Notes under the pieces: model-generated
Seen by the model: the letters and a program-made list of their open reading frames with translations, nothing else
Databases searched by the model: none
What the model was told of the DNA's origin: nothing
Program-made: the position numbers and the translations under genes
Shown here: piece after piece, positions 23,705 through 26,700 of the stretch
How the letters are laid out: each line of letters starts with the position of its first letter
Numbering within the stretch: position 1 is the first letter of the stretch
Assembly (NCBI RefSeq): GCF_021057185.1
Contig: NZ_CP054059.1
Location: forward strand, 420,001-452,000
From: Candidatus Absconditicoccus praedator
GTDB taxonomy: Bacteria; Patescibacteriota; Gracilibacteria; Absconditabacterales; Absconditicoccaceae
Length of the DNA: 32,000 nucleotides
Direction of reading: 5' to 3'

Positions 23705-26700
23705 TTATTTTACTATAAAGTTTGCAATTTTGCCGGGCACATAAATTACTTTTTGGTAACCATCTTTGATATATCTATGTACATTTTCATTTTGGTTTGC
23801 AAGATTTATCATTTCTTCTTGTGAAGCTTCTTTGCTTATCTGAATAGTTCATCTAAGTTTTCCGTTTATTTGTACAGCCAAGGTTATTTCATCTGTTTCA
23901 AGCATCTGAGGATCATAGCTAGGCCAAGAAGCATTTTCAAATATTGTTGGCTTATTGCCTATAAACTCCCAAAGCTCTTCTGCAAGGTGTGGAGCAAAAG
24001 GATGTAATATTACTAGAAATTTTTCTTGCCATTCTTTTGCAAGATTTGGATCAGAAGGCATACCTGTATTTACAAGGATCATCATCTGAGCAATAGAAGT
24101 ATTGAACTTATAATTTTCTAAATCATCTGTAACTTTTTTGATTGTTTTGTGTAGTTGCCTCATACTTTCTTGGTCATTGCCTGATGTTTTTCAGTTCTGG
24201 AAAAGATTCCAAACTTTGTCCAAAAATCTTCTACATCATACAATTCATTGAGGATCCCATGGTGCTGCATCTCTAAAATCTCACATATACATTTCATACA
24301 GCCTAAAAGCATCTGCTCAGTATTCTTGTATAATATCATCCGGATTCTCTACATTTTTTAGACTTTTACTCATTTTAGAAACAATTTTCTTTAACTCTTC
24401 TCCAGTTTCTTTGTGAAAGTATTTTCAATCTTTCTCTTCTACTTCATCGTTGGGTACTAGTCATCAATTGCTTCTTTGGTATGCAAAAGCCTGTATCAAT
24501 CATTGATTAGCCAGTCTATAAAAAGGCTCATCATAATCTACCACATTTATATCATACAAAAACTTGTGCCAAAATCTTGCATAAAGTAGGTGTAATACTG
24601 CATGTTCTACTCATCCAATATAACTGTCTACATAGTTCCAGTATTTGACTGCTTCTTTGCTTACAAGTTCTTCGGAATTATTTGGATCCATATATCTTAA
24701 GTAATATCGGCAAGAACCTCACCATTGAGGCATAGTATTTGTTTCTCTTTGTCAGTATAGATTGTTGGCTATTTTTACATTCAAGAAATCATCTACTGCA
24801 GCCAAAGGAGAACGACCATCACCAGCTGGTTCAAATTTTTCTACATCTGGTAGTTCTACAGGAAGATTGTAATCACAAATTATCTTGGTATATAGTCCAT
24901 CATAAATTTTGGAAATAATTTGTTGGTTGGCTACAAGGAAGCCTTCTCCATTTTCTTCAAGAATATAAGCATTGTTGTCGTTGGCTTCACTTATATCCTG
25001 TATTGTTGAAAGGTTTTGGATGTCTTGTGGGTCAAAATGTATCAAAGGAATAGGTTCTCACCAGTATCTTTGTCTAGAAAAAAGCCAGTCTCTAAGTTTG
25101 TAGTTTACTTTCTTGTATCCAAATCAGTTTTGCTCAGCATATTCAGTAAGTTTTCTTCTTGCTTCTTGAGAAGTTAGTCAATCAAAATCTCAAGAATCAA
25201 CTAAAATTCAATCTTCTGTGTAAGCACCATCTCAGTTTTGATAATAATCCCAGAATATCTTGTGATTCTGTAGATTTATAAAATTGTCTACCTTGTCTAC
25301 ATCCAACCAAAATCAGTTGTGATTTTTGGTTTCTTCATAGTCAGGCTCTTGGTAGCTCTCATCTTCCAACTCAAGCAAAAATCAATCCAATACTGCATGT
25401 CTGTTTTCGTCTTTGTGTTTGGCAAAAAATTTGGTTTGAACTTGTCCTCATAGTTTCTTAACTATCTTTACATTTTGATAACCAGACTCTTCTCTTACTT
25501 CTCTTATTACAGCTTCTTCAAGACTTTCTCATTCTTCTTTGCCTCACACCAAAAAGCTTTTCCAGTTGAACTTTTCCCAGTCCAAGACAAAAACTTTATC
25601 TTTGTTTTTGTTTAGCAGAACTCAAACAACAAGATGTCTTTGGACTGTAGGCTTGTCTTCTCTAACAAAATCTTCATCTTTTTCTGGCTCAAAATAAGGA
25701 GCAACAACATTTCTTATTTCTAGACCATATTTTTTGGCAAACTCATAATCTCTTTCATCGTGAGCTGGTACTGCCATCACAGCTCAAGTTCAGTAATTTC
25801 ACAAAACATAATCTCAAATCCATAGAGGAACTTTTTCGTTGTTGAAAGGGTTGATTACATAAGATCAAGTAAAAACTCAAGTTTTTTCTTTTGCTTCAGT
25901 CCTATCAAACTCTGCTTTATTTTGGGCTTTGTTGATATACTCTTTGCAACTATTTTTGTGTTCGTCTTGAATAAAGTTGTCTACATCAGAATGGTCTGGA
26001 GCAATTACAGCATAAGTTACACCAAAGACTGTATCTATTCTAGTAGTGTATACTTCTATAAAATTTTTTCAATTCTCATCATACATTCTAAATTGAGTTC
26101 ATTCTGATTTTCATATCCAATTTCTCTGCATTTGCTTGATAGACTCTGGCCAGTCTAACTTGTCTACATCATTCAAAAGTCTATCTGCATATTTGGTAAT
26201 AGCCAAAACCCACTGTCTAATCTGTTTCTTCTCTGCAGTTTCTCCACATCTTTCACAAGTTCAATCGTTAAGAACTTCTTCGTTGGCAAGTCATGTTTTA
26301 CAGCTTGGACAATAGTTGATTGGTAAATCCTGTTCATAAGCAAGTCAATTTTCAAACATTTTTTGGAAAATCCACTGAGTCCATTTGTAATAGTTGGGGT
26401 CAGTAGTGTCAATTTCTCTATCCCAATCATAAGAAAATCAGATGCTTTTTATCTGCTCTCTATACCTTTGAATGTTTTGTTTGGTAATAACACTTGGATG
26501 AGTTCAAGTTTTTATTGCATAATTTTCTGCAGGAAGACCAAAAGCATCCCAACCCATAGGATGAAGCACATTATATCAATTAGCATTTTTGTATCTTGCT
26601 ATTATATCATTTGCTACAAATCATTTTGGATGACCTACATGCACTCCTGCACCTGAAGGATATGGAAACATATCCAAGGCATAAAACTTTGGTTTGCTAT

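Follow-up and report, generated by a model that had tools for sequence, protein, structure and literature searches.

How does an essential enzyme like leucyl-tRNA synthetase (LeuRS) come to carry what looks like a second, complete enzyme inside its editing domain, and what might that second enzyme do there? The question is raised by the leuS gene of Candidatus Absconditicoccus praedator, which lies within a stretch of 32,000 nucleotides of contig NZ_CP054059.1 (positions 420,001 to 452,000) that we analysed as a whole and refer to here as the window; all coordinates are those of the window. An initial annotation had proposed that a NUDIX hydrolase domain is inserted in this LeuRS, and both halves of the proposal stand. 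The protein matches the Pfam NUDIX model PF00293 over residues 382-500 (E = 2.6e-13; 50.6 bits in the context of the whole protein and 55.1 bits for the insert alone, against a cutoff of 21.1), and it belongs to the NCBIfam equivalog for bacterial LeuRS (leuS_bact, TIGR00396), scoring 1048.9 bits against a cutoff of 548.4. The fusion is real, and the more interesting issue is what kind of element the inserted domain represents.

The host gene, leuS (23705..26782, minus strand, as are all features of the gene given below), encodes a bacterial-type LeuRS of 1025 residues in an open reading frame of 3078 nucleotides, which runs from 26782 down to 23705 and includes the TAA stop at 23705-23707. 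Read with genetic code 25, it contains 41 in-frame TGA codons specifying glycine and neither TAA nor TAG before the stop, so that the initial annotation was right to treat it as a true in-frame fusion and not a nested gene; read with the bacterial code, it is interrupted by those 41 codons. The use of code 25 is supported because standard-code orthologues have glycine at 63% of the residues aligned with the TGA positions and almost never tryptophan. Seven of the 41 codons fall inside the insert, at conserved glycine positions that include G413 and G418 of the NUDIX box. The predicted protein is 100% identical to the 'leucine--tRNA ligase [Candidatus Absconditicoccus praedator]' on a 1.13-Mb contig, and Pfam finds in it the editing domain, class I catalytic domains, the anticodon-binding domain and the NUDIX domain. 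The whole host matches the LeuRS of Thermus thermophilus (1H3N/2BYT; E = 3e-204) and Escherichia coli (4AQ7), sharing with bacterial LeuRS the HIGH and KMSKS signatures, the Thr-rich motif, the editing aspartates, and the anticodon-binding and C-terminal domains. We compared these motifs across 38 LeuRS sequences, both carriers and non-carriers of the insert (alignment A2). In the HIGH-type signature HVGH of the synthetic site (residues 48-51, 26630..26641) H48 and V49 are invariant, as are T246, T247, R248, D250 and T251 in the Thr-rich editing motif TTRIDT (residues 246-251, 26030..26047), the KMSKS loop (residues 803-807, 24362..24376), and D342 and D345 in the editing-aspartate segment (residues 340-349, 25736..25765), which correspond to D344 and D347 of the T. 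thermophilus enzyme. The anticodon-binding domain follows at residues 870-989 (23816..24175; PF08264, E = 3.3e-23). To judge from its motifs, the window LeuRS appears to be a normally equipped host whose synthetic and editing sites are intact.

Where, then, does the second domain sit? The initial annotation had placed it after the end of the CP1 editing domain, but the insert is nested within CP1, because the Pfam match to the editing domain (PF13603, 202 bits) splits around it, with profile positions 1-146 of 185 matched before the insert (over residues 220-366) and the rest after. The N-terminal part of CP1 comprises residues 220-360 (25703..26125) and the C-terminal part residues 525-561 (25100..25210), restarting at GILVDSGDFDGL (residues 525-536); the other landmarks flanking the site are residues 337-360 (25703-25774) upstream and the YKLRDW...EPIP block (residues 561-579) downstream. 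In the alignment to T. thermophilus LeuRS, residues 3-366 correspond to positions 4-368 and residues 519-584 to positions 375-440, so that the roughly 150 extra residues already recognised by the initial annotation stand in place of a six-residue surface loop (positions 369-374 of the T. thermophilus enzyme). The site is some 20 residues past the editing aspartates. The cassette as a whole, delimited by DNA-level edges in relatives, spans residues 361-524 (25211..25702) and consists of two linkers and the NUDIX domain, whose folded core (residues 379-516, 25235..25648) is predicted to be a strand-rich sandwich with the catalytic helix at residues 421-433. The NUDIX box itself, G413-x5-E419-x7-R427-E428-V-R-E431-E432-S-G434-Y435 (25478..25546), is a perfect match to the consensus G-x5-E-x7-R-E-U-x-E-E-x-G-U, and we recovered all of the motifs quoted by the initial annotation at the same positions. 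The junctions of the insert read ...NVVAPYF and ...AYTEDGILV. An intein or homing element was considered and rejected, since Pfam detected no Hint or endonuclease domains and we saw no junction signatures, repeats or target-site duplication.

The structural predictions are consistent with an independently folding domain. AlphaFold2 modelled the insert alone with a mean predicted local distance difference test score (pLDDT) of 92.5 and a predicted template modelling score of 0.86, a confident NUDIX fold in which the catalytic helix (insert residues 59-71) bears the RE-x2-EE residues. In the full-length model the segment keeps the same secondary structure at a pLDDT of about 87-95, above most of the host, and is tethered by linkers of lower confidence. 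A Foldseek search of the Protein Data Bank (PDB) with the model returned 485 matches at E <= 0.001, and all of the 50 listed are NUDIX enzymes. The top match is the Ap4A (diadenosine tetraphosphate) hydrolase of Aquifex (3i7u; E = 5.7e-9, template modelling (TM) scores 0.66/0.79), and within about two orders of magnitude of it come NudI, RppH (6vck, 4s2y and 4s2x), MutT1, the Ap6A hydrolase Ndx1, human Ap4A hydrolase and Chlamydia CT771. Small single-domain NUDIX hydrolases such as 3i7u, 2azw from Enterococcus faecalis, NudI (6dt3), E. coli RppH (4s2y), T. thermophilus Ndx1 (1vc8) and human NUDT2 (4ijx) thus have the same fold (TM 0.6-0.8), a similar size and a complete NUDIX box; they differ from the window module in being free of another enzyme, and identities among the top dozen Foldseek matches are only 15-21%. 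A profile search of PDB sequences had generic 'MutT/nudix family' proteins alone at the top, and of the six insert types scanned against NCBIfam, four had RppH/NudH models as their best, if weak, match. Taken together, the insert resembles the branch of small NUDIX enzymes that act on (di)nucleoside polyphosphates, NTPs or RNA 5' ends, while lying outside every curated subfamily.

The identity of the substrate deserves careful interpretation. The idea of Ap4A hydrolysis, raised by the initial annotation, is compatible with the structural neighbours predicted for the model, the Aquifex enzyme first among them. F453 lies 18 residues after the box, in a column that is Y, F or H in the rows shown from an alignment of the family (A1, described below), and is followed by the near-invariant K457; an aromatic residue (tyrosine) some 16-18 residues after the box is what we take to be a marker of Ap4A hydrolases. 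The further suggestion that the domain might clear mis-activated adenylates now seems unlikely on grounds of general NUDIX chemistry, since an aminoacyl-adenylate, in which a nucleoside monophosphate forms part of a mixed anhydride, is no nucleoside diphosphate-X compound.

Is the inserted domain under selection to work? Alignment A1 comprises 41 divergent members of this particular NUDIX family, mostly 21-30% identical to the window insert, and in it only E428, E431, E432 and W492 are invariant, with K457 nearly so; the three glutamates are the metal-binding residues of the RE-x2-EE segment. The linkers are likewise conserved across insert types. Of the 41 inserts at this site (site B), 27 have a strict box and a further 12 a near-strict one, and the box was found in 124 of the 150 best matches of an exhaustive search, most of the others being fragments. 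R-to-K substitutions are common in one insert type. When the window gene was compared with its closest relative (P0003; synonymous divergence, dS, of about 0.9), the ratio of non-synonymous to synonymous divergence (dN/dS) was 0.067 in the insert, compared with 0.151 in the remainder of LeuRS and 0.253 in the adjacent CP1 segment; the corresponding comparison in a second same-type pair (P0022/P0016) gave 0.24 versus 0.12. In the A. praedator lineage, the insert thus appears to be under stronger purifying selection than its essential host. Because it is more constrained than LeuRS itself, a selected and most likely catalytic function is suggested, and from the conserved glutamates and the dN/dS of 0.067 we infer that the domain is probably an active enzyme.

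The architecture is not peculiar to A. praedator. An insert of about 145 residues occupies the same site in 41 of the 120 best LeuRS relatives. Word-indexed protein searches gave one match with the insert alone and three with an insert profile, and an exhaustive HMMER search with the insert, covering 1.84 billion cluster representatives (one for each 50%-identity protein cluster), gave 438 matches at E <= 1e-3 and 176 at E <= 1e-10. About 100 of the best 150 HMMER matches are LeuRS, or fragments of it, with the module at this site. Other hosts are rare among these 150, with one prolyl-tRNA synthetase (ProRS) and one M17 aminopeptidase, and the remainder are short proteins of 150-200 residues, for two of which (P0001 and P0287) we confirmed a free-standing status. 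Among species representatives of GTDB, scanned with a single query spanning the insert junctions, 32 of the best 80 loci are carriers with essentially no in-frame TGA, which indicates standard-code organisms. Nor is the fusion confined to SR1/Gracilibacteria or to recoded, reduced genomes, given the roughly 100 of 150 clusters and the standard-code Patescibacteria that carry it, and a restriction to code-25 lineages is rejected. Carrier labels include Nomurabacteria, Kaiserbacteria and Paceibacterota, though many labels of metagenome-assembled genomes (MAGs) are implausible. In three low-GC gut MAGs (L019, L021 and L022) the LeuRS body is 61-63% identical to LeuRS of Bacilli and about 50% identical to that of Patescibacteria, so the architecture is probably also present in some Bacillota. 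A scan of viral genomes in IMG/VR found no relatives of the module.

Several smaller points concern these records. The titles of L002, L006, L009, L013, L018 and L031 (archaeon, Methanosarcinales, Gammaproteobacteria, Methylomirabilis) look implausible for genomes with such bacterial-type LeuRS genes and probably reflect binning or labelling errors. Many code-25 genes have been translated in public databases with code 4, which places tryptophan at conserved glycine positions (P0003, P0005, P0007, P0008, P0018, P0021 and others), and this probably explains why precomputed PF00293 matches are absent from several carriers whose box is intact. In the two other hosts (P0202 and P0236), a domain of this NUDIX family lies between the anticodon-binding and C-terminal domains of the ProRS and within the M17 leucyl aminopeptidase, which also bears two GNAT domains. 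Three LeuRS proteins (P0122, P0123 and P0143) carry the NUDIX domain two or three times, as a tandem pair at the entry to CP1 and a single copy at the usual loop; with identities of only 20-45%, the copies within these proteins are distinct types and not recent duplications.

The most unusual property of the insert, together with a constraint exceeding that of its host, is its cassette-like turnover. On a host tree for which the insert was taken out and 783 conserved LeuRS columns were used, 68 carriers are intermingled with 93 non-carriers such that at least 32 changes of state are required, a count that is approximate since the tree was a quick neighbour-joining one. Comparisons of close pairs are independent of this tree. 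Many insert types can be distinguished, with identities below 40% between types, and very different ones occur in near-identical hosts: host and insert identities are 95% versus 36% for P0022/P0060, 92% versus 26% for P0058/P0078 and 91% versus 24% for P0016/P0086. Among hosts at least 90% identical, insert identity is bimodal, at either 20-40% or 70-100% with nothing between. Carriers and non-carriers can also be close, with LeuRS pairs 90-94% identical (P0025/P0101, P0033/P0113 and P0030/P0066), and non-carriers close to carriers keep the same active-site motifs in alignment A2; the segment from AHD to YKLRDW is about 50 to 120 residues long in non-carriers and 200-215 residues in carriers. 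Conversely, hosts only 42-52% identical may share inserts that are 50-64% identical, one such pair (P0006/L028) spanning codes 25 and 11. The window protein behaves likewise, in that its closest hosts (70-72% identical) bear inserts only 23-28% identical to its own, whereas a standard-code host, L002, has a LeuRS 43% identical and an insert 46% identical to those of the window.

The DNA of P0022 and P0060 shows synteny upstream of the gene and 85-100% identity along it, except for a sharply bounded stretch (codons of about 365-514) in which identity is only 42-77%; the non-carrier P0037 lacks exactly this segment. No repeats or target-site duplication were seen at the cassette edges in the comparison of these three. 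The dS of the insert in P0022/P0060 (0.70) exceeds that of the flanks (0.32), which points to imported sequence and not to accelerated evolution in place; fast divergence in situ was rejected on this basis and on that of the bimodal insert identities. For most NUDIX domains embedded in LeuRS, the nearest relatives in the NUDIX universe as a whole are other such domains and, because the linkers are also conserved across types, these domains are best seen as a single family long resident in LeuRS.

We therefore arrive at a reading to which we would give a probability of about one half: that this LeuRS is bifunctional, carrying an autonomous and active NUDIX domain for a substrate of the nucleoside-polyphosphate type, with an accessory house-cleaning role, as one allele of a recombining cassette family. 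A surface loop of CP1 would then host a nested, independently folding NUDIX pyrophosphohydrolase, predicted to be catalytically competent, within a fully equipped LeuRS. Its substrate would most likely be a nucleoside-5'-polyphosphate, be it an Ap(n)A-type dinucleotide, an aberrant NTP, or the polyphosphate or cap at the 5' end of an RNA. The activity would probably ride on, and be co-expressed with, an essential and constitutive enzyme; it would not be needed for aminoacylation, and the module seems dispensable for that reaction because non-carriers 90-94% identical to carriers keep the same active-site motifs. The window insert would represent one allele, or type, of an old NUDIX cassette family found in this exact loop in many Patescibacteria, a single old insertion having presumably diversified and then been subject to repeated loss and to allelic exchange through homologous recombination in the conserved LeuRS flanks.

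A number of observations weigh against this reading. Pure housekeeping leaves unexplained why very different types occur in near-identical hosts. Frequent loss and a few degenerate boxes (EE has become EK in L018 and L027, and RE has also become RK in L027) suggest that the activity is dispensable in some lineages. As fold-search scores are almost flat across NUDIX subfamilies, the substrate class is only a lean, and the curated models do not settle it: six insert types scored 20-37 bits with the RppH/NudH models (NF001936 and related) against cutoffs of 116-118 (the cutoffs for all the best weak matches lie at 103-118), and scores for MutT 8-oxo-dGTPase (TIGR00586/NF008044) were 17-23 bits against 98-148, so neither membership applies. 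To our knowledge, LeuRS is not a prominent producer of Ap4A. The approximate nature of the tree-based count of changes should be added to these points.

Some of the same evidence could be accommodated by an enzyme directed at RNA ends, in which the NUDIX domain acts on RNA held by LeuRS, as CP1 binds the acceptor end of tRNA, and either strips a 5'-triphosphate or an Np(n)N/NAD-type cap in the manner of RppH or repairs a pyrophosphate-linked modification of the acceptor end. It would fit the presence of RppH structures among the closest folds and of RppH models among the best weak matches, and it would account for a module that is tied almost exclusively to a tRNA-binding enzyme (ProRS being another host) and is housed in the domain that deals with the 3' end of tRNA. 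Given that the RppH scores stay well below their cutoffs, that the M17 aminopeptidase does not bind tRNA and that stand-alone family members exist, we consider this unlikely. We are similarly sceptical of a conflict or immunity cassette, whose NUDIX types would be kept under diversifying or frequency-dependent selection to counteract nucleotide-based toxins, signals or inhibitors directed against translation or LeuRS by hosts, competitors or phages. Within types, selection is purifying and not diversifying; PADLOC reported just weak, generic NUDIX similarity (PDC-S07, 16-22 bits), which does not place the insert among defence NUDIX proteins; the viral scan gave no phage relatives; and the genes flanking leuS in the window are housekeeping ones with no defence genes among them. 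What speaks for such a role is the pattern of turnover, which is typical of conflict loci in its replacement between 95%-identical hosts, bimodal identity, presence/absence polymorphism and several copies per protein, along with the other enzymatic modules (Ham1-like, GNAT, PDDEXK nuclease, Ser hydrolase) in other LeuRS loops of relatives.

A non-catalytic module that tunes editing or aminoacylation, whether as a sensor that binds nucleotides or as a structural or interaction domain, is improbable. The proximity of the insert to the editing aspartates (about 20 residues), the few degenerate boxes (L018 and L027) and the R-to-K changes common in one type would suit it, yet three metal-binding glutamates that remain invariant at about 25% identity, with a dN/dS of 0.067, form the pattern expected for catalysis, and non-carriers keep identical LeuRS active sites. 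The same constraint, at 0.067 against 0.151 for the host, and the invariance of the catalytic residues make it very improbable that the insert is a neutral or selfish passenger, tolerated in a permissive loop and spread by recombination or hitch-hiking at no benefit to the cell; there are no features of a homing endonuclease, intein or transposase either, even if the module is often lost, the loop is evidently permissive in view of the lengths found in carriers and non-carriers, and many unrelated modules are tolerated in LeuRS. An artefact, be it a chimeric assembly, a frameshift or a gene nested on the opposite strand, can be set at next to nothing. We found nothing in favour of it, the frame is continuous, the identical protein lies on the 1.13-Mb genome contig, the architecture is seen in dozens of assemblies made independently and recurs in more than 100 independent clusters and in 32 reference genomes, and TGA codons for glycine fall at conserved glycine positions within the insert. 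A more far-reaching reading can also be put forward tentatively, and we regard it as possible though doubtful: the CP1 loop and at least three other LeuRS loops may form an integration platform in Patescibacteria, on which active enzyme modules (NUDIX types, Ham1-like NTPases, GNAT domains and nucleases) are maintained as a horizontally shuffled cassette polymorphism, the NUDIX domain having diversified against nucleotide-directed or tRNA-end-directed attack or damage near the acceptor end. If this were true, it would represent an unrecognised way of carrying and exchanging accessory functions, with mobility at the level of a domain and no dedicated mobility genes.

How much of this is new? 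Aminoacyl-tRNA synthetases (aaRSs) with accessory enzymatic domains are already known, and what appears to be new here is a NUDIX domain within CP1 and its cassette dynamics. A 2026 survey of domain insertions classes the LeuRS editing domain PF13603 as 'insertion-exclusive', the domain being the host in none of 213 events (PMC13114784); contrary to that survey, PF13603 is here the host, which gives a doubly nested architecture. The NCBIfam entry NF040702, 'isoleucine--tRNA ligase, N-acetyltransferase domain-containing', likewise joins a class I editing aaRS to an unrelated enzymatic domain, but host, guest and site are all different, and a curated model and name exist for that fusion whereas there is none for LeuRS-NUDIX. 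The rRNA-gene insertion sequences of bacteria belonging to the candidate phyla radiation (CPR), some of which encode a homing endonuclease (PMC11270868), are comparable, as far as the available text of that report goes, in being frequent, patchy insertions tolerated in core translation-machinery genes of Patescibacteria; unlike them, to the same extent, the NUDIX insert is read in frame as part of its host gene, is retained in the mature protein and lacks an endonuclease. The closest free-standing proteins are P0001 and P0287, which are 35-43% identical to the whole window insert, including the VLDWEKF-W and AHKDENR motifs outside the box, but which are encoded by separate genes for 166-170 residues in standard-code genomes; the contig of P0001 has 54% GC, and P0287 adjoins genes for AAA_28, DCD and PheRS-alpha. 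Our literature search found neither a NUDIX domain described as nested in LeuRS CP1 nor an account of an essential gene exchanging an in-frame enzymatic domain as a cassette, and in a preprint on host defence against Patescibacteria the sole mention is of pheS as a counter-selection marker. The initial annotation had allowed that the architecture might already be common and annotated: it is indeed common in databases, and public records carry automatic Pfam matches, but the proteins are named only 'leucine--tRNA ligase' and we found no paper on them.

The broader significance lies in the fact that aaRSs are textbook modular enzymes, yet here the LeuRS editing domain hosts an active-looking enzyme in roughly 100 clusters (at 50% identity) across CPR. 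If the NUDIX domain is active, LeuRS would be bifunctional in ultra-small, nucleotide-scavenging bacteria, and tRNA charging and proofreading would be physically tied to the hydrolysis of Ap(n)A, damaged NTPs or RNA caps. A module that is swapped between 95%-identical genes and shared across genetic codes represents an unusual exchange of accessory function, and it also provides a natural experiment on which LeuRS loops tolerate whole domains, which may be useful for protein engineering. There are practical consequences as well, in that public translations made with the wrong code (W for G) hide the NUDIX domain from automated annotation, and LeuRS is used as a phylogenetic marker, so that a recombining internal segment could distort trees.

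Additional segments were seen elsewhere in LeuRS. In the window protein, residues 585-636 (between the PLIH and DYNLP blocks) and 767-802 (in the region of the leucine-specific domain), at about 24875-25030 and 24377-24484, have no aligned counterpart in T. thermophilus LeuRS and are predicted to be mostly beta-strands. Relatives (P0011, P0013, P0014, P0019, P0031, P0039, P0083 and P0087) show at least three further insertion hot spots. The entry to CP1, after NWIGKSEGxEF, holds Ham1-like, Ser_hydrolase, GNAT, PDDEXK_3, additional NUDIX or unknown modules; different modules are found in the leucine-specific region; and a site just before the C-terminal domain holds a Ham1-like module of 209 residues. 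Ham1-like ITPases and NUDIX enzymes are both nucleotide house-cleaning folds. A recurring module of about 115-170 residues with the signature KVKKK(R)-x-H-x-F ... ISW-x-Y ... HFK, for which there is no Pfam match, occurs at two of these LeuRS sites, namely the CP1 entry (P0074, P0083 and P0118) and the leucine-specific region (P0039, P0097 and P0118).

The surroundings of leuS in the window are those of housekeeping genes, comprising an RND efflux pair, QueA, GGDEF/EAL proteins, MPG, DHDPS and AspRS, and no mobile or defence-related genes are present in the window. The leuS gene (minus strand) and aspS (plus strand, 27093-28874) diverge from a shared AT-rich spacer of 310 bp (26783-27092), in which no T-box or further Rfam family was found; scanning the whole 32-kb window for Rfam families and tRNA genes gave no matches. 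Two proteins for cyclic-di-GMP signalling, one with GGDEF (2593-3852, plus) and one with GGDEF-EAL (11839-14343, plus), are encoded together with a full RND efflux pair (AcrB-like, 3859-7071; HlyD-like, 7097-9193) within a reduced genome of 1.1 Mb. A 276-residue fusion (21043-21873, minus) combines an Ogt-type DNA_binding_1 domain (6-O-methylguanine methyltransferase, DNA-binding) with a LigT-like 2',5' RNA ligase/phosphoesterase. Lastly, the product of a gene at 15967-17457 (minus) combines two Kazal-type protease-inhibitor domains with a PrcB_C domain and has a hydrophobic N-terminus; this protein is presumably secreted and, being unusual for bacteria, may relate to the predatory lifestyle.

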